Part shown: piece after piece, positions 4,090 through 33,561 of the stretch
Layout: each line of letters starts with the position of its first letter
Position numbering within the stretch: position 1 is the first letter of the stretch
Source of the DNA: an uncultured virus (IMG/VR IMGVR_UViG_3300037499_000085)
Lineage: Duplodnaviria; Heunggongvirae; Uroviricota; Caudoviricetes
Direction: 5' to 3' (one strand)
Virus record (IMG/VR): IMGVR_UViG_3300037499_000085
Length of the DNA stretch: 64,000 nucleotides
Notes under the pieces: model-generated
Databases searched by the model: none
Told to the model about the DNA's origin: nothing
What the model saw: the letters and a program-made list of their open reading frames with translations, nothing else
Translations under genes and position numbers: made by a program

Positions 4090-5322
4090 ATGCCCCAGTT
4101 TCACGAACTGGCAGATATCGTCCCCCTGATGGAGGGCGAGGCTTTCGAGCGGCTCGTCGAGGACGTCCGGGCGCACGGCGTTCTGGACGCCATCGTGCTG
4201 TACGAAGGCAAGATCCTTGACGGCCGCAACCGTTACCGCGCGCTGGACGAGGTCAACAAGGGCCGGACGCCCACCGAGCGCATGGCTCACCGGGAGATCA
4301 AGTTCGAGGAGCGCTACCCGGACACCGATCCGGCCGAATTCGTCTGGTCCAAGAACGTGGCCCGGCGTCAGCTCACCCCGGGTCAGGAAGCACTGGCCGC
4401 CTCCAAGATGGCCACCGTCAAAGTCGGCAGCAACCAATACGCCCGTAAGTACCTCCCGGAAGGCTCTGCCGATCGGCAGAACCAGGCCAGTGCCGTTCAC
4501 GAGGTGTCGAAGAGCACCGGCGTGCCGGTCCGGAACATCGGGAAGGCCCGTGCCGTACAGCAGAAGGCCATCCCCGAGGTCACGGAGAAGGTGGCGTCCG
4601 GCGCACTCGCGCTCGACGTCGCCGACCAGATCGCCAAGCTTCCCGAGGAGAAGCAGGCAGAGGTTGTCGAACTGGGGGACGTCCGCAAGATCCGCAACGC
4701 CATCCGTGAAGCCAAGGGAGAAGCGCCGGTGAACAACGGTGCCCCGGGCCGTGGCCGCGTCGGTCCCAAGATCCTCATGGCCCGTCACATGGATCTTCCC
4801 GACCTTTCCATGGTCCAGAAGATCGGCGAGGACTGGGAAGAGAACGCTGAGCTGATCAAGGAGCTGGACCCCGAGCGGGTGACGGAGTTCCTGGCCATGC
4901 TCAAGAAGTCCCGCACCGCCACCACCCGGCTCATCAACCTGATCGAGCACGGTGACGTCCGGGGCACGCTGGCCAAGTCCAGCTCACTCAAGACGTCGGG
5001 CGCCAAGGGCAACGCTGCCAGTACTACGGCCACGGCCGCCCGGAAGAAGGCCGCGCCGAAGGCGTCGGCAGCGAAGAAGGCGCCCGGCACGATCACCGCG
5101 TCCGGCGCTCCCACGGTGCCGTCCGTCCGTAAAGCCGTAGCCAACAGCAAGGCACCGACCACCGCCTCCAAGACCGCCAAGGCCACGGCCGCCGCCAAGG
5201 CCGTACGCGCCGACAAGGCCGATGCCCTCCGCAAGATCGCCACCCCGGCACCCGCCGAGGCGGTCACTTCAGATGCGCCTGTCGTGAGCGCAGCGAACGA
5301 GAAGAGCGAGACCACCAAGTGA
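4090..5322 (+). CDS. ParB N-terminal-like domain protein with HTH and a Lys/Ala-rich histone-like tail
   Basis: GKILDGRNRYRA ParB-like motif, NVARRQLT, C-terminal AARKKAAPKASAAKKAP tract. Confidence 0.75.
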   Translation: MPQFHELADIVPLMEGEAFERLVEDVRAHGVLDAIVLYEGKILDGRNRYRALDEVNKGRTPTERMAHREIKFEERYPDTDPAEFVWSKNVARRQLTPGQEALAASKMATVKVGSNQYARKYLPEGSADRQNQASAVHEVSKSTGVPVRNIGKARAVQQKAIPEVTEKVASGALALDVADQIAKLPEEKQAEVVELGDVRKIRNAIREAKGEAPVNNGAPGRGRVGPKILMARHMDLPDLSMVQKIGEDWEENAELIKELDPERVTEFLAMLKKSRTATTRLINLIEHGDVRGTLAKSSSLKTSGAKGNAASTTATAARKKAAPKASAAKKAPGTITASGAPTVPSVRKAVANSKAPTTASKTAKATAAAKAVRADKADALRKIATPAPAEAVTSDAPVVSAANEKSETTK

Positions 5323-7062: not shown

Positions 7063-7466
7063 TCACTGCACTCATCGTGTCCGGCTCCGTCGGTTCATAC
7101 CTCGCCGTGGCTCTGCTGGTCGCACGCGTCACCTACGGCCGCATCTACCGCGAGGAGATCGGCAGACATTCGATTCTGCCCGGCACCCCGGAGTGGAACG
7201 TCACCGGAATCAAGAAAAAGGCCCGGTACGAGGCTCGCGTCGATGCCGGATGGATGTCCGTCATATGGCCGCTGAGCGTGCCGCTGTGGCTGGTCTTCGA
7301 GACCGGCTTCTGGGCCTGCCGCCGGTTCGTGACGGACGGGGTGCGGGAGCCGGACAGTGTCCGTGCCTGGGACCAGGCGCACCGCATCGGGGATCTTGAA
7401 CACGAGGTGGCCGAGCTGAAGCGTGCCGCCGGTGACGACTACGACGAGGAGGAAGATCGTGACTGA
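7059..7466 (+). CDS. membrane protein, paralog of 6198-6560
   Basis: TM segment, YGR, VIWPL, RIGDLEHEVAELK. Confidence 0.7.
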   Translation: MITALIVSGSVGSYLAVALLVARVTYGRIYREEIGRHSILPGTPEWNVTGIKKKARYEARVDAGWMSVIWPLSVPLWLVFETGFWACRRFVTDGVREPDSVRAWDQAHRIGDLEHEVAELKRAAGDDYDEEEDRD

Positions 7467-7839
7467 CGTATCAGAGATCGCACGCCGGTACCGCACCGCC
7501 AACGTACTCGGCGAAGTCATGGCCGAACGAGCGAAGCAGTACGAGAAGTGGGGAGACCAGGTTCTCCCGTTCCATCAGCCCGGAGATCACAACGGCGTGG
7601 TCATCGTCGGCCGCTCGTACACGGTCATGGCGGAGATGATGAAGACCCGCTGTGACATCTACCGGGACCACGCACTGGCCGGTCACCCCGACCTGCGGAA
7701 CAACGCGCTGGTCCTCCTGGAAGAGGTCTTCGAGGCACTGGCCGAGACGGACCCTGTGAAGATCCGCGCGGAGCTGGTACAGGTCGCAGCGGTAGCGGTC
7801 AAGGCAATCGAGACCCTGGACCGCCGGGAGGTCTCGTGA
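7459..7839 (+). CDS. MazG-like nucleotide pyrophosphohydrolase
   Basis: VLLEEVFEAL...AELVQVAAVAV motif. Confidence 0.65.
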   Translation: MTDVSEIARRYRTANVLGEVMAERAKQYEKWGDQVLPFHQPGDHNGVVIVGRSYTVMAEMMKTRCDIYRDHALAGHPDLRNNALVLLEEVFEALAETDPVKIRAELVQVAAVAVKAIETLDRREVS

Positions 7840-11282: not shown

Positions 11283-11587
11283 AAGCGCGAACAATTCTCA
11301 TGTGCGGTGGACCGGCCGACGGGCGATGGGTGACTGTGCCGCCAGGAGCCACGTACCAGGACGTGATGGAGCCGGTCCGCCCGTCGGTGCGGATGCTGTC
11401 CCAGGAGGAAGCCCTGGCGCAAGTGCAGGGAGAACTGACCCGGGTCAGGTACCGGATCACATCGGTGCCGGTCGCGGGCCATGAACTGTGGATAGGGGTG
11501 TGTGAGGCCGAGGCGTACGACGACCGGGCCGTCTTGCGCGCGATCTTGCAGCGTGATGTTGCTCAGTACCTGGGGGCGTACCGATGA
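11279..11587 (+). CDS. hypothetical protein
   Basis: GGPADGR N-terminal motif common in small phage proteins. Confidence 0.65.
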   Translation: MKARTILMCGGPADGRWVTVPPGATYQDVMEPVRPSVRMLSQEEALAQVQGELTRVRYRITSVPVAGHELWIGVCEAEAYDDRAVLRAILQRDVAQYLGAYR

Positions 11588-11961
11588 ACGCTCCTGTAGA
11601 AATCAGCGGGTACTGCCCGGCGTGCGGACATGGGTCCCTCGTGATCTACCCGGCACCTCTCAACGCCGTGCCGATATGGGTCATGTGCTGCTGGCCCGAC
11701 TGCCCCCGTCCGACTGCCGCGCACGAAATCCTCGCCGACCGGGAGACGGAGCACATCGTCGACCTCGGAACGGAAGGGTTCACGCTCCGGCATCCCCTGC
11801 GCGAGCGCCTGGACGATGCGCTCATGGACTGCGACGTACATGCGCGACTGGCCGCCGGAGGCCCGCCCGCGAGCACCGGCCGGTTCCGGGTCAGGCTCCA
11901 CACAGTGGAAGAGCCGGACGGCGTAGAGCTGACCTTCGAGCCACTGGAAGACCAGGAGTGA
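11584..11961 (+). CDS. hypothetical Cys-motif protein
   Basis: CPACG...CPRP. Confidence 0.65.
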   Translation: MNAPVEISGYCPACGHGSLVIYPAPLNAVPIWVMCCWPDCPRPTAAHEILADRETEHIVDLGTEGFTLRHPLRERLDDALMDCDVHARLAAGGPPASTGRFRVRLHTVEEPDGVELTFEPLEDQE

Positions 11962-11966
11962 TCACC

Positions 11967-14198
11967 ATGTCGGACAGCAACGATTTCCTGATGAGCGACG
12001 GACCCCCGGCGCCCGACCCCATGGACGTGCTCATGGCCGAGGACCGGCCGAGCAACGGACTCGACAAGCTGTACAAGAACAAACGCTATTACCTGCCGGA
12101 CCCGGTCACCGGTCTGCTCCGCACCTGGACGCGCGTCACCACCATGGCCGAGACGACCAGTGATCTTTACGCACTGAACCTCTGGCGTATCCGCATGATG
12201 ATCATCGGTCTGACCCGGAACCCGGAGCTGCTCGACGAACTACGGGAGCTGGACGAGTTCGACCCCGAGACCGGCAAGGGAAAGCTCGACCCCAAGCTGC
12301 ACAAAGACAAGTTGAACAAGATCGGATTCCGGTCGCAGGATCTCGCCGGAGCCAAGGTGCCCGCCGGGTGGGGCACCCGCATGCACACCTGGATCGAGAA
12401 GCTGTCCCGCGACGAGATCACTCTGTCCGAGGTGGAGGACAAGTACCGCGACGAGGTGACCGCGTGGCATGCCGCGATGCAGGGTGCGGAGCTGTCCGCC
12501 GTGCCCCATCTCATCGAGCGCCGGGTGTCCATTCCTGTGTACGGCACGGCTGGGACCTTGGACCAGATCGACCGTGTGCACCGGTCCCGGTCCATCCGGC
12601 TCGGTAACCGGGTCGTCCGGCTCAACGCGGGTGACCACCTCGTGGGCGACGTCAAGGGGTTGGCCCTCACGGAGCGCATCCCTACTCCGGACGGCTGGGC
12701 GACCATGGGCGAACTCCGCACCGGTGACCAGGTGTTCGACGCGTACGGCACGCCGTGCAACGTGACCGAGAAGTCCCCGGTGAAGAGGATCGGAACGTAC
12801 ATCGTCCGGTTCGATGACGGGTCCTCCGTGGTGTGCGACCGTGAGCACATCTGGTGGACGGCTGCCGGATTCGGGACCAACGTGCGCCCTCCGTTCAAGC
12901 CGACTGCCAAGCCCGTATCAGAGATCATCAGTACGTTGCGGAACAGCAACGGGGCGCAGCACCGGGTTCCGGTGGCCGGTCCATTGGATCTTCCGGAATC
13001 CGATCTCCCCATTGATCCGTACCTCTTGGGGTGCTGGCTCGGGGACGGTGCGGTACGCGGTGGGACCATTCACAAGGGCCGCGATCTGTTCGAGATCCTG
13101 GAAGCTGATGGTCATTCGCTCGGGGTGGAACAGGACGACAAATCTGATCACTGTGTTGCACGCACAGTGATCGGCTTGACTACGCAGCTCCGGGCGGCTG
13201 GTTTGCTGCACAACAAGCACATCCCGGCCTACTACCTCCGGGCATCCGCCGGGCAGCGTGTGCGCCTGCTACAGGGCTTGATGGACACCGACGGGACATG
13301 GAACACCGCTCGGAATTCCGCCGCGTTCAGCACCACGGACAAGGCTCTCGCCGGACAGGTTGAAGAGCTGATGCTGTCCCTTGGGCAGCGTCCGCACGTG
13401 TCATACATGAAACGGCACGGGTACGGCTTGACCGTGGACTCATGGACGGTAGAGATCACCCCGGTTGATCTCAACCCGTTCCGGCTGCCCCGGAAGGCGG
13501 ACCAGGCCGCCGCGTCCGTCAAGTCGGTGACCCGATCACGTCGTCGGGTGATCACCCAAGTACTTCCGGGCCCGGATGTCGACACGGCGTGCATCGCGGT
13601 CGACTCCCCGACGCACACCTATCTGTGCGGGGACCGGATGATCCCCACGCACAACAGCGGCCGGGATCTTGACTACGGGTGGGGGGAGATCTCCATCCAG
13701 ATGGCTCTCTACGCGCACGGCGCGCGCGAAGGGCTGGTTGCCCGCTGGGATCCGGACGCCGAGACAGCCGACCCGGACGACCCCGGGGCGTGGGTGTGGG
13801 AGGACATCGGCATACCCCCCAAGTCGATCAGACAGGATGTCGGAGTGGTCATGCACGTGCCCATCGGTGAGAAGACGTGCACCCTGCACTGGATAGACCT
13901 CACCGAGGGCTGGAAGGCCGTACAGCTTTGCGACAACGTACGGGACTGGCGGAAGGCCAAGGGACTCCAGACTCCGTTCTCCATCGCCGAGGTGCCCACC
14001 GACGATCCGGGGTCCAGTCCCCGGGTGCGTGCGTCCAGTTGGCAGGAACGGTTCGCGTCGATCACGTCCAGGCCGCACGCCACGCTGCTGTACCGGGAGT
14101 ACCTCCGCGCCGGTGGGGTGCACGGCAGCCCTGAGGCGAACCGGCTCATCGCCATAGCGACCAAGCACCTGGAACAGCTCGAAGAGTCCAGCGCGTAG
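11967..14198 (+). CDS. RecB/Cas4-like PD-(D/E)xK exonuclease interrupted by an intein
   Basis: RVTT, GTRMH, AGTLD, GDVK|SG and QMALYA motifs; RBS AGGAG. Confidence 0.85.
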   Translation: MSDSNDFLMSDGPPAPDPMDVLMAEDRPSNGLDKLYKNKRYYLPDPVTGLLRTWTRVTTMAETTSDLYALNLWRIRMMIIGLTRNPELLDELRELDEFDPETGKGKLDPKLHKDKLNKIGFRSQDLAGAKVPAGWGTRMHTWIEKLSRDEITLSEVEDKYRDEVTAWHAAMQGAELSAVPHLIERRVSIPVYGTAGTLDQIDRVHRSRSIRLGNRVVRLNAGDHLVGDVKGLALTERIPTPDGWATMGELRTGDQVFDAYGTPCNVTEKSPVKRIGTYIVRFDDGSSVVCDREHIWWTAAGFGTNVRPPFKPTAKPVSEIISTLRNSNGAQHRVPVAGPLDLPESDLPIDPYLLGCWLGDGAVRGGTIHKGRDLFEILEADGHSLGVEQDDKSDHCVARTVIGLTTQLRAAGLLHNKHIPAYYLRASAGQRVRLLQGLMDTDGTWNTARNSAAFSTTDKALAGQVEELMLSLGQRPHVSYMKRHGYGLTVDSWTVEITPVDLNPFRLPRKADQAAASVKSVTRSRRRVITQVLPGPDVDTACIAVDSPTHTYLCGDRMIPTHNSGRDLDYGWGEISIQMALYAHGAREGLVARWDPDAETADPDDPGAWVWEDIGIPPKSIRQDVGVVMHVPIGEKTCTLHWIDLTEGWKAVQLCDNVRDWRKAKGLQTPFSIAEVPTDDPGSSPRVRASSWQERFASITSRPHATLLYREYLRAGGVHGSPEANRLIAIATKHLEQLEESSA
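12657..13655 (+). mobile_element. class 3 intein (333 aa) with LAGLIDADG homing endonuclease
   Basis: starts GLALTERIPTPDGW; WCT signature DREHIW, TACIAVD, IPTHN/S; LLGCWLGDG and LLQGLMDTDG. Confidence 0.9.
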
Positions 14199-14316: not shown

Positions 14317-14389
14317 TCCTCCGTAGCTCAGTTGGCAGAGCACCGTCCTGTTAAGTCGGTGGCCGCTGGTTCGAGTCCAGCCGGGGGAG
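14317..14389 (+). tRNA. tRNA-Asn(GTT), CCA not encoded
   Basis: acceptor TCCTCCG/CGGGGGA, D arm GCTC/GAGC, anticodon loop CTGTTAA (one T-T mismatch in the stem), T arm GCTGG TTCGAGT CCAGC. Confidence 0.9.
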
Positions 14390-18590: not shown

Positions 18591-20667
18591 GGACATGCCC
18601 AGCGCCACCGGGGGACAGCGCAGGGGAGGGACACGCCGCGTCAACATCAACCGGAGGACAAGTGACACAGGTGACAGGCTCATGCCCTACCTTGTCCCGG
18701 TGGCGCTGTGTCTGTCCGCCATGCCGGTGTCCTTGATCGGACACTGGCAGTGGGGTGACGACCCGCTCATGGTCGCCCTCATGTCCCTCGCGTCCGCCGG
18801 TCTGTCTCTGTTCACCTACTCGACGTGGGGAACACGGCGCCGGACAACGAGGACAACGGCCGCCGTGTTCGTCCTCGCCGTGTCCCTGTGGATGACGTTC
18901 GCCGTGGCGACGGATCCGTTGTCCCCCGCGATGCTGAACGCGTGGATATACGGCACCGTTGTCCTGTCCGCCGCGTGGGGCATCCGTCACGCGTCCATGT
19001 CCCGTCACCACGAGGAGGACATCGCGGACGGACCGAAGGACACGTTCCTTGACCGGCTCGGGGGGCTGTTCGAGTCCCTGTCCGCCAAGGAGATCAAGAG
19101 CCACGGGAACCGGATCACCGCCGAGTACGCCATACCTCCGGGTTCCGCCACGGTGGGCGACGTCCAGGCGGAGCTGAAGCGCGTGGCCGGTGCTCTCGAA
19201 GTGCCGGTGTCCGCCGTGACGATCACGGAGTCCAAGCCCAACCACGTGATTTTCTCGGTCCAGCCGGGCGACCCGCTCGGTTCCGGCCCGGTCATGTGGC
19301 GCGGCCCGTCTCTGCCCGGCCGGTCCGTGGCCGATGGACCGCTCAGGTTCGGGTGGCGCATGAATGACACCCCGGTCGGCTTGTGGGTGTGCGGAGACGA
19401 ACGGCTCGACCGCCAGCTCTCTCACATGCTCGACGTCGGCATGACCGGTTCCGGGAAGTCCGAGACCCTGTCGACGATCATCATCGAGGGCCGGTCGCGT
19501 GTCGACTTCGTGCCCGTGGTGGCCGACCCCAGGAAGTTCGACCAGGCGTACGGTGACATCGCCGACACCCTCGCCCTGTCAGCGGCTGACGAGGAGCAGA
19601 CACTACGCCTGATCAGCAATTTCCCCGCTGTCGCCGCGTACCGGGCCAAGCTGCTCGGATCACTGACAAGGGCTGACGGGGGCCGTGGTTACAAGCAGTG
19701 GGTCCCCGAGTGCTGGACCCTGCACAAGATCCCGCTCGTTTTCATGGTGATCGACGAGGCCGCTTCGGTGATCTCCCGGAACGACGAGTTCAACGACGGC
19801 GTACGGCTCTTCAGGTCCCTGGGGATCTTCATGGTGGCCGGTCTTCAGACCGCCATCGGCTCGGACATCGACCGCAAGATCAGGGACCAGTTCGGCCAGG
19901 CACTCGCGCACGGTTGCAAGTCCCCGCTCGACGCCGGGTTCGTCCTCACGGACGGCACCCTCGCCGCCGGGGCCGACCCCACAAAGTGGCAGGCCAACAA
20001 AGCGGGCGCGTTGTTCGCCGAGCTGACCGGCACCCCCAAGGACCAGTGGCACCTGGAATGCCGGGCCTTCCTCACGGACCACCCGGACGACCGCACCGTG
20101 AAGCGCCGCGCGCTCGAAGCATCCCGCCCCACCTGGGCCGTGCTCGACGAGGGCACCGCCTTCCACCTCGGACGGGGCCTGACCATGCCGGACAGTGCGC
20201 TTCCGATCAAGGGCGCCTTCACCCCGGTCACCATGCCCGAGACAACCGCACCGGTCGAGCCCGAGACCCGCACCAGGAGCGAACACGCCCCGCCCATGGA
20301 CGAGGAGTATGAGCACGTGGACATCACACAGAAGATCCCCCGGAACCCCGCGCTGGTCAGCGAGGCGTTCGAATCCGACCGACCGGCCGAGCCGTGGCCC
20401 CAGGCTGAAGCGCAGGAAGCCTTTGATCTACGGCTGGAAACCCTCGTGGCCGACGATTACGACACGGTCCGGCTGGTCGACTTCAGCGACGTTATCGCCG
20501 AGGTGGGCCGTTCCCGTGCATGGGGATACGACCAGCTCACCCGGCTCGAACGACAGGGAGTGATCAAGTCGGACCCTACCGGAAGCCGCGCCTACCGGGT
20601 TGTCACCGATCGTCATCCCCGTGTCACCAGCCTGAGTCACGGGATAAACGGGGCGGAAGTGATCTAG
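18580..20667 (+). CDS. traB: TraB, FtsK/SpoIIIE-family conjugative DNA translocase
   Basis: four N-terminal TM helices, Walker A GMTGSGKS, Walker B MVIDEAA, IRDQF, C-terminal wHTH (GRSRAWGYDQLTRLERQG). Confidence 0.85.
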   Translation: MTSEDMPSATGGQRRGGTRRVNINRRTSDTGDRLMPYLVPVALCLSAMPVSLIGHWQWGDDPLMVALMSLASAGLSLFTYSTWGTRRRTTRTTAAVFVLAVSLWMTFAVATDPLSPAMLNAWIYGTVVLSAAWGIRHASMSRHHEEDIADGPKDTFLDRLGGLFESLSAKEIKSHGNRITAEYAIPPGSATVGDVQAELKRVAGALEVPVSAVTITESKPNHVIFSVQPGDPLGSGPVMWRGPSLPGRSVADGPLRFGWRMNDTPVGLWVCGDERLDRQLSHMLDVGMTGSGKSETLSTIIIEGRSRVDFVPVVADPRKFDQAYGDIADTLALSAADEEQTLRLISNFPAVAAYRAKLLGSLTRADGGRGYKQWVPECWTLHKIPLVFMVIDEAASVISRNDEFNDGVRLFRSLGIFMVAGLQTAIGSDIDRKIRDQFGQALAHGCKSPLDAGFVLTDGTLAAGADPTKWQANKAGALFAELTGTPKDQWHLECRAFLTDHPDDRTVKRRALEASRPTWAVLDEGTAFHLGRGLTMPDSALPIKGAFTPVTMPETTAPVEPETRTRSEHAPPMDEEYEHVDITQKIPRNPALVSEAFESDRPAEPWPQAEAQEAFDLRLETLVADDYDTVRLVDFSDVIAEVGRSRAWGYDQLTRLERQGVIKSDPTGSRAYRVVTDRHPRVTSLSHGINGAEVI

Positions 20668-20780
20668 GGGGGCGTGTCAGTGGGTGTTTGTCAGCCCTTG
20701 TCACACCCGCCGACACGGCCTCCCACCTGTATATCCGCGTTCTGATATCCACGGCTGACACCGTCCGGCCGTGTCACACC
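20600..20780. repeat. putative clt (cis-acting locus of transfer) repeats
   Basis: KTGTCAS at 20600, 20621, 20674, 20688, 20698, 20771 plus an inverted copy at 20755. Confidence 0.5.
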
Positions 20781-20799
20781 ACCAACGGAGGAGATCCAC

Positions 20800-21051
20800 A
20801 TGAAGACTGCACGGCTCGACAAGATCGTGAAAGAGGTCATCTGGTGGACCCATGCTCTCGTCGCCCTGCCCTTGATCTACTTGGGCGCTGGACTCGTCCC
20901 GGGTGACCGGGTCAACCTGAACGTGATCGGATCACTGATCATTATGGCGGTGTTCGTCGCCCTTGATCTGGCGATCACCGTTCCGTGCTCAGCATGGCGC
21001 CGGAAGATCACGCGTCCCGTTCTCGCGCCGGTCCACCGGAGCGAGTGGTGA
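20800..21051 (+). CDS. small membrane protein (spread-like)
   Basis: two TM segments, RBS GGAGGAG. Confidence 0.65.
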   Translation: MKTARLDKIVKEVIWWTHALVALPLIYLGAGLVPGDRVNLNVIGSLIIMAVFVALDLAITVPCSAWRRKITRPVLAPVHRSEW

Positions 21052-21152
21052 GGCGTCGGGCGTACAACCGGGTCAAGCTCATCGTGATCGTCCTCAGCTT
21101 CCTGGCCGCCGTTCTGATCGCGGACGCCATGGAACTGACCAACCACCCGTAG
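21048..21152 (+). CDS. small membrane peptide
   Basis: GTGA coupling; VKLIVIVLSFLAAVLIA. Confidence 0.5.
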   Translation: MRRRAYNRVKLIVIVLSFLAAVLIADAMELTNHP

Positions 21153-21160
21153 GGGACACC

Positions 21161-21568
21161 GTGAACGACCGTAAGAAGGAGCTGAACGTCCGTAAGGCGG
21201 ACGAGATCAGCTACCGGCCCAGCGGGCTTCCCGCAGTGCCGGAAGAGACGTACGTGGACCAGCAGGGCCGGGTGATCGAAGTCCGGCACGTGCAGAGCCC
21301 GCCGGAGTACCGGGGGGATGATCTTCTCCGGCGGTTCGTACCGTATTTCGTACTGGCGACCATGAGTATGATCCTTCTCGGCGCACTGCTCGCGCTGCTC
21401 GGTATGATCATTCCCCCGCTGCTCGCACTGGTGATCACTCTCGTAGGCTCGCTGGTGTCGATCATCCTCAGCCTGGTCGTAACGATCATTGCGGGGGTGG
21501 TCGCTGCCGTCGGCATCGGGTACCTCCAGACGATCAATGCGCGGGCCGATTGGGAAAATGATCACTGA
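21161..21568 (+). CDS. SpdC/SpdD-like membrane spread protein
   Basis: hydrophilic Pro-containing N-terminus followed by a long hydrophobic C-terminal tract. Confidence 0.6.
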   Translation: MNDRKKELNVRKADEISYRPSGLPAVPEETYVDQQGRVIEVRHVQSPPEYRGDDLLRRFVPYFVLATMSMILLGALLALLGMIIPPLLALVITLVGSLVSIILSLVVTIIAGVVAAVGIGYLQTINARADWENDH

Positions 21569-21587
21569 GTACAGGAGTTGATCAAGA

Positions 21588-21710
21588 ATGACCGGACGGC
21601 ACCGGCGCCGGTCCAGCAAGATCATAGCCACCGTGAAAGGGATGATCCTTTTCACGGTGGCTCTGTTTCTGATCTTGGGAGCGCTTTGGATCTTCCTGGC
21701 GAGCAAATGA
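21588..21710 (+). CDS. small membrane peptide
   Basis: RBS AGGAG; MTGRHRRR followed by one TM helix. Confidence 0.5.
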   Translation: MTGRHRRRSSKIIATVKGMILFTVALFLILGALWIFLASK

Positions 21711-21738
21711 TCTACATGGATATGCGGTGATCAAGGAA

Positions 21739-21870
21739 TGCCCATAATGCCCGATTCGCTCCAACCAATGTTCGTGATCACGCCCCTGACCTGCACAAAT
21801 CCCTAACCCAAAGGTCCTGGTACGCGGGCCCCAGGGAGGGGGTTGAGGCCGCCAGACGGACGCACAGGAC
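21739..21870 (-). repeat. dispersed intergenic element, copy B
   Basis: reverse complement matches copy C: TTGGGTTAGGGATTTGTGCAGG...CGTGATCACGAACATTGGTYGGAGCGAA. Confidence 0.85.
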
Positions 21871-21925
21871 GTTCATGTAGCACCGTTTGTATCATGATTT
21901 TATGCATCGTCATGCATGACCACCC

Positions 21926-21957
21926 GAGCCGCCGGTGATCTTCCCGGCGGCTTTTGA
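21926..21957 (+). terminator. intrinsic terminator
   Basis: GAGCCGCCGG-N8-CCGGCGGCTT followed by TTGATCTT. Confidence 0.6.
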
Positions 21958-22079
21958 TCTTCCCTTACGCGCGCGCGTAGACACGCGTGCCTGCCCGCTC
22001 CTCAAGATCCAGCAAACTTTTTAAAGAATCTTGCTCTACCCCATTGCGTACCCCCGAACGGGGGAGCTTAATGGAGTCA

Positions 22080-22625
22080 GTACAACAGCACGGCGCAGGG
22101 AGGGTCCAACCCCCTCCAACCGATCAAGAGTCACCCCGGGTACCTACGGAGACCGGCAAAGGCTCAAGATCACAAGGACCGCCCCGACGGGGGCGGGCGC
22201 CACTCCCCTCCAGGGCCGCGAGGTACAGGGGGGCGGGGACCGGATCTCCGCAAGCAGCATTGCAGCCGGGCCCGGAGTGATCACCGGGTACACAAACTGA
22301 CGATCAAGAGAAGCCTAGCCGCTGGACGAAGGGGCGGGGCCACAAGATCGCCGAGGACATACGGCACTGACGATCTTGAGGAACCAATCCGGACGTACTG
22401 GAATCCGCGAAGCAACTCGGGTTAATCACCCGGCCAGTAGGCCGCCGATGAAGATCCCCGCCAATCCTCGCGGGTCATACAGCACCGGGCAACCGGATGC
22501 ATACGAGGATCACACGCTTCGCAGGGTCTGCGGTCAAACACCCTGCTACGGCATTGAGGCGGTAGACGCGGCCGGTAGCCGCGACCGAGAGGCGCCCAGC
22601 GGGTTCAACCCCCGCCCCTGCCACT
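22080..22625 (+). ncRNA. candidate large structured ncRNA with a tRNA-like 3' end
   Basis: no convincing ORF; many short hairpins; ends in GCGGG TTCAACC CCCGC CCCTGCCA; boundaries approximate. Confidence 0.45.
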
Positions 22626-22727
22626 GATCACCGCACGCCAGAAACGATGGGTCAAGGGCCTGGGAAACAGCGGCGCACGGCGGTCCCCCTACACCACCCA
22701 CACCCACACCCACACGAGGAGCCGGTC

Positions 22728-22961
22728 ATGAGCGACACCCGAGAGATCACCGGCAAGGGCTTCACCTACGTAGTCACCCGCCGGTTCCTGAACAAGGAGA
22801 CCGGCCGGATGCGCGTCCGGGTCCGGATCTACCAGGGCATGATCGCTTTCGGCACCCCCAAGGTCAACGAATACCGCGACTACGACAACATGCACGACGG
22901 CGACGCGAAGTTCCTCGCACACATCAACAAGATCACCGCGCACGTCAACTCGAAGGGCTGA
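22728..22961 (+). CDS. hypothetical protein
   Basis: RBS GAGGAG. Confidence 0.7.
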   Translation: MSDTREITGKGFTYVVTRRFLNKETGRMRVRVRIYQGMIAFGTPKVNEYRDYDNMHDGDAKFLAHINKITAHVNSKG

Positions 22962-22966
22962 TCATC

Positions 22967-23164
22967 ATGGAGACCAACCAGTACGCGACTGAGTCCAACA
23001 CCTCCGTCTGGTACGAGGTGCAGCGCCAGTCCGGCAGCAACTACGGCTGGATCACTCTCTCCGACCACGACACCCGCGAGCAGGCAGAGAGCGCCATGGA
23101 TGCCCGGACGGGTTCGGTCGCCGACCCCAGCTACCGGATCCGCCGGGTGCGCGGACAGGCATAA
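22967..23164 (+). CDS. hypothetical protein
   Basis: stop codon abuts hammerhead 1. Confidence 0.65.
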   Translation: METNQYATESNTSVWYEVQRQSGSNYGWITLSDHDTREQAESAMDARTGSVADPSYRIRRVRGQA

Positions 23165-23225
23165 GGCGAAACGCCCCTCGGGGCGTCCGCCGGGGGTGCC
23201 TCCCCGGCGCTGATGAGCCAGGCAC
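23165..23225 (+). ncRNA. type II hammerhead ribozyme 1 (predicted cut after C23187)
   Basis: GGC-GAAA-stem III-GTC-stem I-CTGATGA-GCC; loop GTGCCT pairs with 3' AGGCAC. Confidence 0.92.
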
Positions 23226-23244
23226 ACGGACACAGGGAGCGATC

Positions 23245-23439
23245 ATGACCAGCATCAACCAGGGCCCGAACGACGACTACCGCCGCACCGGCCAACCGGT
23301 CACGTACCTCACCGCCGACGGCACCCGGCGGGTGTCCGGCACCGTCCGGTGGGAAGACGCGAACGGCGTCAAGGTGGATGTACCCGGACAGCAGTTCGGA
23401 GCGTACGTGTCCCACGCGTTCGTCACCTTCACACGCTGA
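23245..23439 (+). CDS. hypothetical protein (ribozyme cassette 1)
   Basis: RBS GGAG-CGATC-ATG. Confidence 0.7.
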   Translation: MTSINQGPNDDYRRTGQPVTYLTADGTRRVSGTVRWEDANGVKVDVPGQQFGAYVSHAFVTFTR

Positions 23440-23443
23440 TCAA

Positions 23444-23504
23444 GGCGAAACGCCCCTCGGGGCGTCCGCCGGGGGTGCCTCCCCGGCGCTGATGAGCCAG
23501 GCAA
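23444..23504 (+). ncRNA. type II hammerhead ribozyme 2 (predicted cut after C23466)
   Basis: identical to hammerhead 1 except for the last base. Confidence 0.92.
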
Positions 23505-23523
23505 ACGAACCGAGGAGCCGGTC

Positions 23524-23724
23524 ATGGCACTTACCCCCGGAACACAGATCACCGTCCTGCTGGGGACCGAGCCGGAGCAGTTCACGGTCGAGAGTGTCGA
23601 CAAGGACTGCACGGTGCATGTGCGGTCGAACGCTGCGCCGTACAGCCTGGTCATGTGGCCGACTGACTACCGCCTCGGTGCCACGCTGCACAAGATGGGC
23701 CAACCGGGTACCAAGGGTTGGTAA
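23524..23724 (+). CDS. hypothetical protein (ribozyme cassette 2)
   Basis: RBS GAGGAG. Confidence 0.7.
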   Translation: MALTPGTQITVLLGTEPEQFTVESVDKDCTVHVRSNAAPYSLVMWPTDYRLGATLHKMGQPGTKGW

Positions 23725-23743
23725 CTGATCTCCGTCTGATCAA

Positions 23744-23804
23744 GGCGAAACGCCCCTCGGGGCGTCCGCCGGGGGTGCCTCCCCGGCGCTGATGAGCCAG
23801 GCAC
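23744..23804 (+). ncRNA. type II hammerhead ribozyme 3 (predicted cut after C23766)
   Basis: identical to hammerhead 1. Confidence 0.92.
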
Positions 23805-23817
23805 GGAAGGAAAGATC

Positions 23818-23964
23818 ATGGATGCCGCAACCGAAGCGATCAGTTTCGCCGCCGCCGCGTGGTCGCTCGAACTGATCGACCACTACCCCGGCACCGACGC
23901 CGACCGTGACGACATGATCCGCAATCTGGCCGCGTACGGTCCGGCCATCACCGAGAGGGACTGA
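23818..23964 (+). CDS. 48-aa hypothetical protein (ribozyme cassette 3)
   Basis: RBS AAGGA; MDAATEAISF... Confidence 0.6.
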   Translation: MDAATEAISFAAAAWSLELIDHYPGTDADRDDMIRNLAAYGPAITERD

Positions 23965-23969
23965 TCCAA

Positions 23970-24200
23970 ATGACCATGGACACCACCATCCGTACCGGCG
24001 ACGTTGTCGTGATCTTCTACGACGCCGACTCGCTGCCCGGAACGGTCTGCAAGATCGTAAAGTCCCGCACCGGCAACGTCCGCCGGGTCGGGATCGCTCC
24101 CGACGGCGCGGACATCGTGGCCTGGTTCATCCCGGTGCCCGACATGTTCGACGGGGCCTGTCTGGTCTCGGTGGGGGGTTCCACCGTCGCGTACTGGTAA
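23970..24200 (+). CDS. hypothetical protein (ribozyme cassette 3)
   Basis: RBS GAGGGA; stop 2 nt before hammerhead 4. Confidence 0.65.
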   Translation: MTMDTTIRTGDVVVIFYDADSLPGTVCKIVKSRTGNVRRVGIAPDGADIVAWFIPVPDMFDGACLVSVGGSTVAYW

Positions 24201-24202
24201 GA

Positions 24203-24267
24203 GGCGAAACGCTCCCTCCGGGGAGCGTCCATCGGGCATGGTCCCCCGGTGCTGATGAGCCGGACCA
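24203..24267 (+). ncRNA. type II hammerhead ribozyme 4, divergent (predicted cut after C24229)
   Basis: core intact; stems CGCTCCC/GGGAGCG and CATCGGG/CCCGGTG; loop TGGTCC pairs with 3' GGACCA. Confidence 0.9.
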
Positions 24268-24282
24268 CGAGGAGGAGCGATC

Positions 24283-24480
24283 ATGAGCATTACACTCACC
24301 AAATTCAAGATCCAAGACGTTGTGATCGACAACGACTGGAACGACCCCCCGGATCTCGGAATGATCGTCGACATTCCGAACGACGGTAACGACCGCCGTT
24401 TCGAGATCTTCTGGCAGGACGGAACGCATACGTTCGAGCGCCTGTCTGGTATGGCCGACTTCGGCCACGTGAGTGTGTGA
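24283..24480 (+). CDS. hypothetical acidic protein
   Basis: RBS GGAGGAG. Confidence 0.7.
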   Translation: MSITLTKFKIQDVVIDNDWNDPPDLGMIVDIPNDGNDRRFEIFWQDGTHTFERLSGMADFGHVSV

Positions 24481-24562
24481 TCTCCGCTCGGGTGCGCGTC
24501 TCGTACGTGCACCCCCTGAGGCTGATCATCCATACCTCACTCCGACTACCACAGGAGCGACC

Positions 24563-24763
24563 ATGTTCACGATCGTTTACCGCACGCAGCTCGACAGCAC
24601 CCTGACGCGACTGGAGACCGACAACCTGTACGACGCGATGTTCGTGCTTCAGGACGTTGCGGTCCGCCGGGACGCCGAACTGATCGACTTCAGCCCTGAG
24701 CTGGACGGAGCGCTGGACGGCCTGCTCGACCACGTCCGGCTGTCCGTCGCTCGCGCGCTCTGA
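24563..24763 (+). CDS. hypothetical protein
   Basis: RBS AGGAG. Confidence 0.7.
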   Translation: MFTIVYRTQLDSTLTRLETDNLYDAMFVLQDVAVRRDAELIDFSPELDGALDGLLDHVRLSVARAL

Positions 24764-24804
24764 TCAAGGACAGTAAAGCTGATCTTCGACAAGAGGAGAC
24801 CATC

Positions 24805-25002
24805 ATGAACGTCCTCATCATGCACGTGTTCTACCCCGGCATGACGCAGTCCCGCCCGGTGTCCGTGGGCGACCCGGTGACGGATGCCGGTTACACCGGC
24901 TACGTCTGGACCGTGGACATCAACGACGTGAACGCGGACCCGGTCCGTACGCACTGCTCGCGTCTGTCGGAAGACCCGGTCGGCCAACTGTCCGTCCGTT
25001 GA
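24805..25002 (+). CDS. hypothetical protein
   Basis: RBS GAGGAG. Confidence 0.6.
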   Translation: MNVLIMHVFYPGMTQSRPVSVGDPVTDAGYTGYVWTVDINDVNADPVRTHCSRLSEDPVGQLSVR

Positions 25003-25144
25003 TCAGCAGCTCCGGCCGGTGTCAGAGCCGACCGGAGCACTAGGCGCGGGTCACGGGCCGGTCATCCCCCCGTCACTCCGTTGCCAGCACAACGACCGGC
25101 CGGATCCCCCGGCCGGTCCACCTCGTTCAACCGCAGGAGCGATC

Positions 25145-26338
25145 ATGCAACTCACTCTCCGTAAGGGCACTCTCCAGGATCTGGCCACCGAGCTGGCCGA
25201 GCAGCAAGAGCGCAAGAACGATCTCGTCGTCCCCGCGTCCAAGCTGTGGTCCCACAACGGCAACGTGATCGTTGCCGGTGGCCGCCCCGAGCGGATCGAC
25301 TCCGACGGAGTCACTCCCGCCGGGAACCTCGAACTGACCCCGTCCGGCGTGTTCGACACCGGCATGGTGGCCAAGCTGTCGCAGCCCGGCCGTCCGGTCG
25401 GCCGCGCGTTCATCCGTGGGCTGCGCGAGACCGGCCGTACGGACATCATCGACGGCGTGTACAACGGATTGCTGCACGGTAGTGCCGATCTCGCGGTGCA
25501 GGGCGACGCCCGGAAGTTCTTCGTCCGCACCTTCACGGGTCAGGGCGACGGACCGGGCTACGCCCGCGCACTGCTCAGTGACAGCTACCGGCCGATCGAC
25601 AACTGGGACGTGCTCGCGACCGTGATCGACGGTCTCACGTCCGCCGGATTCTCCGGCCACGTGGTCCGGCAGGCCGATCTGTCGGACGACAAGATGTACC
25701 TCCGCGTGTCGGTGCCGGAGATCACGGCGCTCGCGCCTGGTCTGTTGCACGGCTACACCTCGCCTTACGGCGGAGCGCGCGGTGCGGACAACCCGGTCGT
25801 CGAGGCCGGGATCGTCATCACCAACTCGGAGACCGGGGGCGGTGCCTTCACGATCACTCCCGAGCTGGTCGTCCAGATCTGCTCGAACGGGATGACGATC
25901 AAGCGGGACATGATCCGCAAGACGCATCTCGGGTCCAAGCTCGACGAGGGGCACATGAAGATCAGTCAGCGGACCCTGGCGGCTAACCGTGAGCTGGTCG
26001 CGTCTCAGACCCGCGACGCCATCGAGACGTTCCTGGACGAGGGGTACATGAACCGCGTGCTCCAGCAGATCGAAGCGGGCTCGGACGAGAAGATCGCCGA
26101 CGTCGAGAAGACGATCGAAGTGATCACTCAGCGTCCGGCGTTCGGCAAGGCGGACATGAAGGGCCTTCTCGCCACGTTCATGGACGGAGGCGACCGCACG
26201 CGCGGCGGTCTGGTGCAGGCGGTCACCGCGTACTCGCAACAGATCGACGACGCCGACCGGGCGTACGAGATGGACGCGGATGCGCTTCCGGCCGCCGGGT
26301 TCAGCAACGTGACCGGCCTGGTTCCCGCCGGACGCTGA
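25145..26338 (+). CDS. DUF932-family protein
   Basis: RALLSDSYRPIDN, ITNSETGGG, CSNGM, RKTHLG motifs. Confidence 0.75.
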   Translation: MQLTLRKGTLQDLATELAEQQERKNDLVVPASKLWSHNGNVIVAGGRPERIDSDGVTPAGNLELTPSGVFDTGMVAKLSQPGRPVGRAFIRGLRETGRTDIIDGVYNGLLHGSADLAVQGDARKFFVRTFTGQGDGPGYARALLSDSYRPIDNWDVLATVIDGLTSAGFSGHVVRQADLSDDKMYLRVSVPEITALAPGLLHGYTSPYGGARGADNPVVEAGIVITNSETGGGAFTITPELVVQICSNGMTIKRDMIRKTHLGSKLDEGHMKISQRTLAANRELVASQTRDAIETFLDEGYMNRVLQQIEAGSDEKIADVEKTIEVITQRPAFGKADMKGLLATFMDGGDRTRGGLVQAVTAYSQQIDDADRAYEMDADALPAAGFSNVTGLVPAGR

Positions 26339-26402
26339 ATGATCGGAGGCAGCATGGTGGCCGGTCCCTCCGGGGGCCGGTTGGCCACGGGTTACCGATC
26401 AC
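26337..26402 (+). repeat. 66-nt structured intergenic repeat, copy 1
   Basis: 61/66 identical to 26825-26890; closed by TGATCGG/CCGATCA. Confidence 0.85.
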
Positions 26403-26411
26403 TGAAAGGAA

Positions 26412-26639
26412 ATGACCATGGCAGGTAAGTACTTCGTCGACTGGACGGATCCGCCTTTCCCGGCCATCCGGCCTATCGGTGATGCGTCTTCGTACGCGGA
26501 GCCGATGACTCTGGCGGAAGCCAAGCAGGACATCATCAGCAGCTTCCAGGGGCAGCTCGAACACGCCCGGGACCAGATTCGCCGGACCCGGTCCCTGAAG
26601 GTCGCGGACATCAAGGCGGAAGCCGAAAGGGGCTGGTGA
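26412..26639 (+). CDS. hypothetical protein
   Basis: RBS AAAGGA. Confidence 0.65.
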   Translation: MTMAGKYFVDWTDPPFPAIRPIGDASSYAEPMTLAEAKQDIISSFQGQLEHARDQIRRTRSLKVADIKAEAERGW

Positions 26640-26830
26640 TCATGCGCGTAGGCGACCTGATCCAGATGACGGTTACCCGATGCGATTCGATCATTGAAGT
26701 CACCGCTCGGTTCGGGGGGCAGGAAGGACGCGGCCAGGCCCCGAACACCGGGACCCTCGCGCAGGACGTGGCCGCACTCCGGGCGGTCCGCAATCTGAAG
26801 CGCAAGCTGGACGGCCGACCGGCCGAATGA
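26636..26830 (+). CDS. hypothetical protein
   Basis: GTGA coupling. Confidence 0.55.
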   Translation: MIMRVGDLIQMTVTRCDSIIEVTARFGGQEGRGQAPNTGTLAQDVAALRAVRNLKRKLDGRPAE

Positions 26831-26890
26831 TCGGAGGCAGCATGGTGGCCGGTCCCCTGGGGGGCCGGTCGGCCATGGGTTACCGATCAC
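26825..26890 (+). repeat. 66-nt structured intergenic repeat, copy 2
   Basis: matches 26337-26402. Confidence 0.85.
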
Positions 26891-26907
26891 AGGAGGAGCG
26901 AGAGTAC

Positions 26908-27387
26908 ATGGACGTAGCAGACATCTTCAAGGATCTCGGAAGCGTGGTGTCCGGCGTCTCCGAGAAAATGGACTGGGCCGAGGACGAGATCGAAAAGGCT
27001 CAGGCCCGGCACGGCGAAACCGGCCGTGGCCCGCTGTGGGGCAGCTTCCGGGCGGTCCGGCAGAACGAGAATCACATGGCCGAAGAGATCATCTACCGGG
27101 CGCACGCCAGGGAGATTCTCGACCGGGTGGCCGCCGGTCGCGACGTCCGTCCCGGCACCGACGCCGAGATGATCGCTGCGCTCCGCGCGTCGTCGCTGGT
27201 GTCGCCACTGCCATCGGCCGCCGCGACCCTGTATTTCCGGATCGCGGCCCGGTCGTTCCCGGAACTGTTCGCCACGGTCATGGCCGTGATCGACTTGAAG
27301 GCATACGAGGCGGTGCACGGCACGGCCGCCGACGACCAAGAATCCTGGCTCCGGGCCAAGCTGGCCACGGACCGGGGGAAGGACTGA
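26908..27387 (+). CDS. hypothetical protein
   Basis: RBS AGGAGGAG. Confidence 0.7.
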   Translation: MDVADIFKDLGSVVSGVSEKMDWAEDEIEKAQARHGETGRGPLWGSFRAVRQNENHMAEEIIYRAHAREILDRVAAGRDVRPGTDAEMIAALRASSLVSPLPSAAATLYFRIAARSFPELFATVMAVIDLKAYEAVHGTAADDQESWLRAKLATDRGKD

Positions 27388-27389
27388 TC

Positions 27390-27689
27390 ATGGCGCACGA
27401 GATGTCCGAGGAGATGTGGCGCGCCTGTCACCCGCCCATCGACACCATCGCGATTCCGCCGGAGCTGTGCCCCGAGCACCGGAGCATCGCGCACGACTGG
27501 CGGAACAATCTCTACAGCTCGTACAACCCGTCCGAGTGGCCGGGCGGCTCACACATCATGGACAGCCGGACCAGCCACCGCGACCGCCGGTACGACTGGG
27601 AGACCAAGAACGAGGACCAGGTGCGGCTGACGGTCAAGTCGTGCTTGTCCGGCCGGTCTCCGCAGTGCAACCACCCCGAGGAGGGTTGA
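27390..27689 (+). CDS. hypothetical protein
   Basis: RBS AAGGA, tight packing. Confidence 0.65.
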   Translation: MAHEMSEEMWRACHPPIDTIAIPPELCPEHRSIAHDWRNNLYSSYNPSEWPGGSHIMDSRTSHRDRRYDWETKNEDQVRLTVKSCLSGRSPQCNHPEEG

Positions 27690-33488: not shown

Positions 33489-33561
33489 ACACCTGTAGCT
33501 CAGGGGACAGAGCACCGCGCTACGGACGCGGAGGACGGGGGTTCGAATCCCCCCGGGTGTA
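33489..33561 (+). tRNA. tRNA-Arg(ACG), CCA not encoded
   Basis: acceptor ACACCTG/CGGGTGT, D arm GCTC/GAGC, CCGCG CTACGGA CGCGG, GGGGG TTCGAAT CCCCC. Confidence 0.92.

Follow-up and report, generated by a model that had tools for sequence, protein, structure and literature searches.

An array of type II hammerhead ribozymes between small genes of an uncultured actinophage: candidate processing sites of a putative polycistronic message

Why would a phage carry RNAs predicted to cleave themselves in successive gaps of a putative operon of small genes? The question is raised by a 64-kb stretch of DNA from an uncultured virus of the Caudoviricetes (IMG/VR record IMGVR_UViG_3300037499_000085; the whole stretch of 64,000 nucleotides (nt) that was analysed is called the window here), which carries an array of four hammerhead ribozymes, all in one orientation (+ strand), with single genes or short gene blocks between them. 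An earlier note on this DNA had proposed that the ribozymes cut the operon transcript into mini-gene units, that these units could close into circular messages and that the repeats could shuffle gene cassettes. We favour, and consider reasonably probable, the reading by analogy that the polycistronic message is self-cleaved during transcription into short mRNAs with hairpin-capped ends. The evidence for the ribozymes themselves is given first, followed by the evidence that bears on what the array may do.

Four type II hammerheads

The whole window was searched on both strands against 4227 Rfam families, an Infernal search that the earlier note had named as a check on its four proposed sites. 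At those sites the search returned four + strand matches to RF02276 (Hammerhead_II), which score 54.6–57.8 bits (E 1e-8 to 2.5e-9) against a gathering score of 37. All four are full-length, covering model positions 1–66 of 66.

23164–23227, + strand: hammerhead 1 (type II), RF02276 55.3 bits, E 1.1e-8; predicted cut after C23187
23443–23506, + strand: hammerhead 2 (type II), RF02276 57.8 bits, E 2.5e-9; predicted cut after C23466
23743–23806, + strand: hammerhead 3 (type II), RF02276 54.6 bits; predicted cut after C23766
24202–24268, + strand: hammerhead 4 (type II, diverged copy), RF02276 55.5 bits; predicted cut after C24229

A permissive Rfam scan of the 64 kb (E<=1) gave no ribozyme beyond these four, and the core word CTGAYGAG has just three further occurrences in the window, none of them in a hammerhead context. 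The RF02276 control search produced matches in none of the 14 control genomes.

Each of the four copies reads GGC-GAAA-stem III-GUC, then stem I-CUGAUGA-GCC, then a tail. The catalytic core nucleotides (CUGAUGA, GAAA...U and C17 of the GUC) are intact in all four, and the pairs that flank the core are G-C (10.1–11.1), C-G (1.1–2.1) and A-U (15.1–16.1). In the covariance-model alignments stems I and III are closed by loops and stem II is open, which is the type II connectivity.

Copies 1–3, described in the earlier note as near-identical, are in fact 100% identical across 62 nt (23163–23224, 23442–23503 and 23742–23803); between copies 2 and 3 the identity covers 68 nt (23736–23803 on the copy 3 side). 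Copy 4 is 75–78% identical to the other three, and its stems are compensated. Its stem III is GCUCCC/GGGAGC where copies 1–3 have GCCCC/GGGGC, longer by two pairs and with a C-G to U-A swap; in stem I, pair 2 is A-U (G-C in copies 1–3) and pair 3 is U-G (C-G in copies 1–3). The pseudoknot between loop I and the 3′ tail is UGGUCC/GGACCA in copy 4 as opposed to GUGCCU/AGGCAC, with four of the six pairs differing on both sides. The compensated stems and the covarying pseudoknot had both been described in the earlier note, and this part of its account holds; its GTGCCT/AGGCAC pairing does not hold for copy 2, whose tail is AGGCAA and whose pseudoknot has 5 base pairs (bp). In copies 1 and 4 the pseudoknot has 6 bp, so that the range across all four is 5–6 bp.

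Copies 1 and 2 take the hammerhead three-way junction as their minimum free energy (MFE) fold. The folding energy of the ribozymes does not differ significantly from that of controls (z −1.0 to −1.7), and the reverse strand folds equally well. The thermodynamic signal is thus weak in this GC-rich RNA, and the case for the ribozymes rests on the covariance-model score and on covariation. Judged by these two, the four units are genuine type II hammerheads. Hammerhead cleavage is established chemistry and leaves products with 5′-OH and 2′,3′-cyclic phosphate ends. For the four RNAs of the window, site-specific self-cleavage is predicted, and is expected from the behaviour of homologous arrays that have been tested.

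Covariation and the pseudoknot

The covariation set was made of 11 hammerhead copies, from the window phage and three relatives. Across these 11 copies, 95% of the stem I cells are paired and two pairs are altered on both sides; the covariation score of stem I was matched by none of 500 shuffles, and slid controls pair in 39–58%. Stem III varies in both sequence and length, and its pairing is kept in every copy of the lineage. A pseudoknot of 4–6 bp, with differing sequences, is present in 11 of the 11 lineage copies.

The pseudoknot is found outside the lineage as well. Among 117 distinct other viral type II hammerheads, 58 have a pseudoknot of at least 4 bp, versus 28.6 ± 3.1 when tails are swapped, and 34 have one of at least 5 bp, versus 10.5 with swapped tails.

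At shorter distance, a relative about 95% identical to the window phage (run X10) has three substitutions within the ribozymes and all three are structure-neutral. In hammerhead 3, C23779>U turns a C-G pair of the pseudoknot into U-G; hammerhead 4 carries only a change in loop III (24217) and a stem I change of U-G to C-G (24232).

Some copies in related metagenome loci have unusual cores. Three of them (L141 405–468, L141 720–783 and L142 2443–2516) read CUGACGA for CUGAUGA, with C at the variable core position 7, and the hammerheads of L143 and L142 have an additional U between A9 and stem II. Hammerheads with either feature still reach 48–59 bits with RF02276.

Operon layout and predicted products

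The GGC of the four ribozymes begins 0, 4, 19 and 2 nt past the stop codons at 23162–64, 23437–39, 23722–24 and 24198–200. The ribozyme tails stop 19, 19, 13 and 15 nt short of the next ATG, and the ribosome-binding site (RBS) lies in that gap. These measurements agree with the placement given in the earlier note (0–19 nt after a stop codon and before the next RBS). The same is true of the unit lengths that follow from the predicted cut sites: 279, 300 and 463 nt, with one, one and two genes, respectively.

The features of the operon region are as follows (aa, amino acids; ORF, open reading frame; GC3, GC content at third codon positions).

21926–21953, + strand: terminator-like hairpin, 10-bp GC-rich stem, then a T run
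22728–22961, + strand: g1, 77 aa from ATG 22728, ORF open from 22647; GC3 0.87
22967–23164, + strand: g2, 65 aa, GC3 0.88; stop codon abuts hammerhead 1
23245–23439, + strand: g3, 64 aa, GC3 0.88; sole gene of the 279-nt unit
23524–23724, + strand: g4, 66 aa, GC3 0.81; sole gene of the 300-nt unit
23818–23964, + strand: g5, 48 aa, GC3 0.82; in the 463-nt unit
23970–24200, + strand: g6, 76 aa, GC3 0.90; in the 463-nt unit
24283–24480, + strand: g7, downstream operon gene, no ribozyme after it
24562–24763, + strand: g8, downstream operon gene
24805–25002, + strand: g9, downstream operon gene
25019–26338, + strand: g10, 439 aa, phrog_1362 at 2.9e-61; anchor for the search for relatives

In the explanation that we favour, each ribozyme would fold while the operon is being transcribed and would cut after its own GUC. 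The products would be mRNAs of g1-g2, of g3 (279 nt), of g4 (300 nt), of g5-g6 (463 nt) and of g7 onward. The stem III hairpin, carrying a 2′,3′-cyclic phosphate, would form the 3′ end of the upstream product of each cut; the downstream product would begin with a 5′-OH on the stem I hairpin, pseudoknotted to its own tail and 13–19 nt ahead of the start codon. When excised units 1 and 3 are folded, their MFE structures retain both the 5′ stem I hairpin and the 3′ stem III hairpin. The benefit would lie in structured, nuclease-resistant ends and in a standard leader for each cistron, by which stability and translation would become independent of the neighbouring genes. We infer this benefit from end-dependent RNases and from the likeness to engineered ribozyme insulators; RNase E/J, which depend on the 5′ end, and 3′ exonucleases provide the general basis for an argument from end protection.

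The position of the stop codons bears on a different idea, that cutting is regulated. Ribozymes 1, 2 and 4 begin 0–4 nt past a stop codon, and a ribosome terminating there would, given its known footprint, sit on part of stem II and on the 5′ strand of stem III. Terminating ribosomes, or conditions such as Mg2+, might slow or block cleavage; the role of the ribozymes would in that case be to adjust how fast the small-gene messages decay, or their timing, and not just to separate them. Regulated cleavage has already been raised for phage hammerheads (PMC3088659). We regard this as distinctly unlikely, since there is no aptamer-like additional domain, since consensus cores and GC-rich stems favour rapid co-transcriptional folding, and since the tested prophage arrays are described as cutting efficiently without any factor (PMC3088659).

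The earlier note had gone beyond processing and had the units joined head to tail, by self-ligation or by host RtcB, into stable circular coding mRNAs of 279, 300 and 463 nt. The ends left by cleavage are exactly those that RtcB joins; the GGC/GCC stem II is common to all four copies, so that any two halves formally rebuild a core; and 30–80% of retrozyme monomers are reported to be circularised by RtcB in vitro (Cervera and de la Pena 2020, PMC7229834). The ends of the window units are, however, not predicted to meet. Type II products are held by the 3-bp stem II only, and in a secondary-structure model the probability of re-pairing is <=0.001 for the three units, with 0–4 MFE pairs linking the first 60 nt of an excised unit to its last 45. 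Self-ligation is given as just 1–3% even for retrozymes, the ends of which are held together (PMC7229834). Moreover, the window units are unrelated genes and not tandem copies of one replicon. For the prophage arrays, spliced and circular products were looked for in 2011 and neither was detected (PMC3088659). The circular coding RNA of the earlier note is accordingly unsupported, and we would give it a very slim chance. We are just as doubtful of the composite version, in which RtcB-closed, translatable circular mini-mRNAs are made from repeats that double as homology patches for cassette exchange. If circles were formed, a DNA phage would be using hammerheads to make long-lived circular messages for small early proteins.

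The array in related genomes

Megablast of 22000–25500 against 50,697 phage records gave no match, and a search of IMG/VR with the 439-aa product of g10 (the anchor protein) gave no relatives. The nearest record (G001) is 100% identical to the window over 21664–25768; it is the same phage and provides no independent evidence. An anchor-protein search of a metagenome collection yielded 10 related loci (62–85% aa identity). Nine of the ten were scanned with Rfam, and copy number was compared among the five in which the sequence extends 3.4 kb or more upstream of the anchor gene. Hammerheads upstream of the anchor and on the same strand are present in four of these five: four copies in L141, two in L143, two in L144 and one in L142, with none in L147. 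The match coordinates of L143 and L144 are identical, so that these two loci probably represent one sequence. The comparison of cassettes suggested in the earlier note thus shows relatives with four, two, one or no hammerheads and with different genes between them.

The most informative of these loci is L141, whose anchor protein is 85% identical to that of the window. With H for a hammerhead, the order of the window is g1 g2 H g3 H g4 H g5 g6 H g7 g8 g9 g10 and the order of L141 is g1 g2 H x1 H g5 g6 H x2 H x3 x4 g8 ... g10. Shared genes keep their ribozyme neighbours, and the differences are of whole gene-plus-ribozyme units. The L141 homologues of g1 and g2 are 75 and 83% identical (aa), that of g2 being likewise followed by a hammerhead, and those of g5 and g6 (47 and 71%) are again flanked by two hammerheads; for g3 and g4 no homologues were found across the nine related metagenome loci. 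The ribozymes of L141 lie 1–4 nt after a stop codon and 12–19 nt before the next ATG.

Exchange is also visible at finer scale. The contig of the X10 relative has 288 other letters in place of 22970–23736 and rejoins the window sequence where the 68-nt repeat starts; the 42-nt side fits copies 2 and 3 equally. Within the ribozymes, the 5′ half of window copies 1–3 equals that of L141 copy b (23 of 23 positions). The 3′ halves of all four L141 copies are alike at 37–38 of 38 positions; window copy 4 matches them at 35–36 of 38, and window copies 1–3 at only 26–27 of 38. Ribozyme halves are mosaic between genomes, having been either reassorted or homogenised within genomes. Such mosaic halves imply a process at the DNA level, as nothing else can produce them.

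Hammerheads in other viruses and in Streptomyces phages

A pattern scan of IMG/VR for the core and stem II found at least 123 loci. From 80 listed loci we hand-picked 50 records, favouring long and multi-hit ones, so that the tallies are a biased frequency: RF02276 (E<=0.001) was found in 46 of the 50, two or more copies in 27, four or more in 13, and up to 11 in a single record.

Among cultured phages, blastn of copy 1 matched 58 records, 56 of which are Streptomyces phages (77–86% identity). By sequence, the Streptomyces-phage hammerheads are the closest relatives of the window ribozymes in the collection of cultured phages searched. In the small-gene arms of six of these phages we found 59 RF02276 matches (E<=0.05): nine in Celia, 10 in Urza, nine in VieEnRose, nine in R4, 11 in Paedore and 11 in Janus. 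All 59 are on the gene strand and nearly all are in annotated intergenic gaps; none of the 59 carries an RNA annotation. Three tiny annotated ORFs of R4 (NC_019414.1), gp60.1, gp67.1 and gp75.1, coincide with RF02276 matches of 46–54 bits (1763–1846, 4126–4218 and 7074–7175) and are probably hammerhead ribozymes, not genes. A search limited to one full-text collection found no publication that names hammerheads in these Streptomyces phages or in actinobacteriophages.

In Urza an OCR-like antirestriction gene (7229–7819) has a hammerhead on each side. An ardA antirestriction gene is reported inside the array of Agrobacterium tumefaciens (PMC3088659), and the two together hint that arrays sit among early anti-defence genes.

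Possible cassette exchange, repeat spread and message processing

Could the ribozyme repeats serve, primarily or additionally, as DNA? They would then be homology patches through which co-infecting phages gain, lose or swap cassettes, somewhat as with linker sequences at mosaic junctions. Several of the findings above fit this: the differences between L141 and the window are whole ribozyme-bounded units, the replacement in the X10 relative rejoins exactly at the start of the 68-nt repeat, and ribozyme halves are mosaic between L141 and the window. Paedore and R4 add four collinearity breaks, each some 3 nt or less from a ribozyme edge. A breakpoint test in four Streptomyces phage arrays, which are not independent of each other, gave no significant excess, however. 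Ends of long high-scoring segment pairs fall at 25 of 36 ribozyme junctions versus 34 of 61 other gene junctions, for an odds ratio of 1.8 and p=0.20. The three tiny ORFs of R4 that coincide with ribozymes were excluded from the gene list. Intermediate cassette coverage in the Streptomyces phages was 52/128 (41%) versus 52% with shifted boundaries, a small shift. Phages in general show mosaic breaks at gene boundaries, which counts against a special role of the repeats, and such breakpoints explain most of the pattern. The X10 replacement has its left boundary (22969) at a start codon and not at a ribozyme, and the intact cores in diverged copies argue for selection on RNA function and not on mere DNA homology. 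We therefore consider a DNA-level role unlikely. As for the cassette shuffling of the earlier note, the unit-wise differences and mosaic halves lend it partial support, and the excess of breakpoints at ribozyme junctions is not significant.

The same repeats could be selfish or neutral, a small hammerhead repeat that has lately spread through intergenic gaps without benefiting the phage. The complete identity of copies 1–3, the range of copy number among relatives (4, 2, 1 and 0) and the missing array in L147 and in the nearest cultured phages would all be in line with this. We nevertheless find it very unlikely, because diverged copies, both in the lineage and among the 59 matches in the six Streptomyces phages, keep their cores and have compensated stems, because the ribozymes keep a constant position with respect to stop codon and RBS, and because every copy is on the gene strand.

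Message processing has points against it too. The cultured phages nearest by capsid (REQ1, Jflix2, Shagrat, Madraxi and Mcklovin, of Rhodococcus/Gordonia) carry no hammerhead in any of the five, and neither does L147, a relative by its anchor gene, which makes the array dispensable. A recent, benefit-free spread of repeats could account just as well for the three identical copies. Ribozymes 1, 2 and 4 adjoin a stop codon directly or almost so, and their cleavage may compete with translation instead of being constitutive. The proposed gain in stability or insulation is argued by analogy. The 18 runs listed for the phage sequence include no RNA run.

Genes of the operon and the phage genome

The hairpin at 21926–21953 probably closes the preceding transcription unit, to judge from its stem and T run. 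The next 770 nt or so (21954–22727) have no convincing ORF, many GATC words and no Rfam family, and are probably the regulatory region of the hammerhead operon. A promoter scan found no + strand sigma-70-like promoter upstream of the array, and no + strand terminator-like site was found in 21953–27500, the array included. At the junctions of g7–g10 an Rfam scan and a core-word search gave no further, half-site or decayed ribozymes.

The small ORFs have GC3 values of 0.76–0.90, as real genes of this genome would show. Pfam and PHROG returned no families for g1–g9, save a sub-threshold Tudor_5 for g7 (E 0.0034), and the ESM Atlas returned only unnamed viral clusters for g2 and g6. The small operon proteins show no paralogy among themselves (best E 0.12, no pair with E<0.1) and have no homologues among 7676 ORF segments of 124 other hammerhead-bearing loci.

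The RBS word of g1, CGAGGAGCCGGTCATG, is identical to that of g4; as a translation-start word it is found twice in the window, at 22715–22730 and 23511–23526. When many ORFs of L143 and L142 are read through upstream of their starts, the translation gives '..RTQEPIM', which suggests a shared leader or RBS sequence.

The GC content of the window is 65%. Its − strand encodes, over 38–64 kb, a holin, endolysins, tail proteins, a tape measure and a protease-capsid fusion; the + strand, over 4–37.5 kb, encodes a helicase, an exonuclease-like protein with a LAGLIDADG insert, an FtsK-like protein, an HNH endonuclease and many small ORFs. The capsid fusion is nearest to those of Rhodococcus phages (41–48% aa), with Gordonia phages next, so that the host is probably a member of the Mycobacteriales. 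The window comes from a tailed, siphovirus-like actinophage, and DNA of this phage occurs in sediment and soil metagenomes.

Several further observations concern the genome at large. The ORF at 11502–14198 (898 aa) has exonuclease-like (phrog_466) and terminase/helicase-loader-like matches, and the LAGLIDADG_3 domain at its residues 587–636 may be an intein or a homing-endonuclease insertion. Two tRNA genes lie on the + strand (14317–14389 and 33489–33561; 64.7 and 65.5 bits), and the related loci have 1–4 tRNAs downstream of the anchor gene. GATC words are strongly over-represented on both strands over 1–64000, with a peak at 20000–26000: GATC itself has 636 occurrences versus 339 expected from dinucleotides, TCAAGATC has 20 versus 1.1 and GATCAAGR has 27 versus 2.8. 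CTAG is avoided (19 observed versus 82 expected). TGATCA(AGG) stands at many gene ends. The GATC words could be a methylation word, a regulator word or a junction motif.

Comparison with known systems

The arrangement seen in the window has been known in phages since 2011 and is not new in principle. Clustered type II hammerheads that flank single genes in prophages were described by Perreault 2011 (PMC3088659) in Clostridium scindens, Azorhizobium caulinodans and Agrobacterium tumefaciens. According to the same report, three prophage arrays were cut at every ribozyme in vitro and one in E. coli; processing into single-gene mRNAs was proposed, and spliced or circular products were considered (PMC3088659). 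A 2019 review (Weinberg et al.) describes the purpose of the arrays as still undefined and repeats the mRNA-processing proposal as untested.

The window and the 2011 arrays share clustering in one orientation, the type II topology and the pseudoknot of loop I with the 3′ tail, and in both the gene content between ribozymes is inconstant. The window differs in belonging to an actinophage lineage of 65% GC, in having three of four copies identical and in being known here from sequence alone. For its lineage, unlike the 2011 arrays, relatives with 4, 2, 1 and 0 copies and mosaic ribozyme halves are documented. What is new is an array that is stable at one operon position in an uncultured actinophage lineage, with turnover of ribozyme number and of the intervening genes, together with the mosaicism of ribozyme halves and the unannotated hammerheads (9–11 each) of six cultured Streptomyces phages, R4 included.

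The Streptomyces phages, of the Arquatrovirinae, have the same ribozyme family as the window, likewise in intergenic gaps, on the gene strand and in a small-gene operon. Their arrays are larger (9–11 copies each at a spacing of 208–2512 nt, mostly mutually diverged, as against four in the window), and they have no capsid or anchor-gene kinship to the window phage. Being culturable and well studied, with hosts that are non-pathogenic and genetically tractable, they make the function of the arrays (processing, stability, circles, recombination) directly testable.

In retrozymes and viroid-like RNAs, two hammerheads excise a unit that can be closed by tRNA ligase or RtcB (de la Pena et al. 2020, PMC7761336; PMC7229834). 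These RNAs consist of a single non-coding unit repeated in tandem, with type I or III ribozymes, and the fold of the unit holds the ends together. The units of the window are, in contrast, unrelated coding genes between type II ribozymes, with ends that are not predicted to meet. Another comparison is with engineered insulators of the RiboJ type, in which a ribozyme just upstream of the RBS trims off the RNA before it; a 5′ hairpin remains, and expression becomes context-independent. RiboJ is synthetic and single-copy, and was derived from the hammerhead of a satellite RNA. The array of the window is natural and, unlike RiboJ, would also form the 3′ end of the upstream message.

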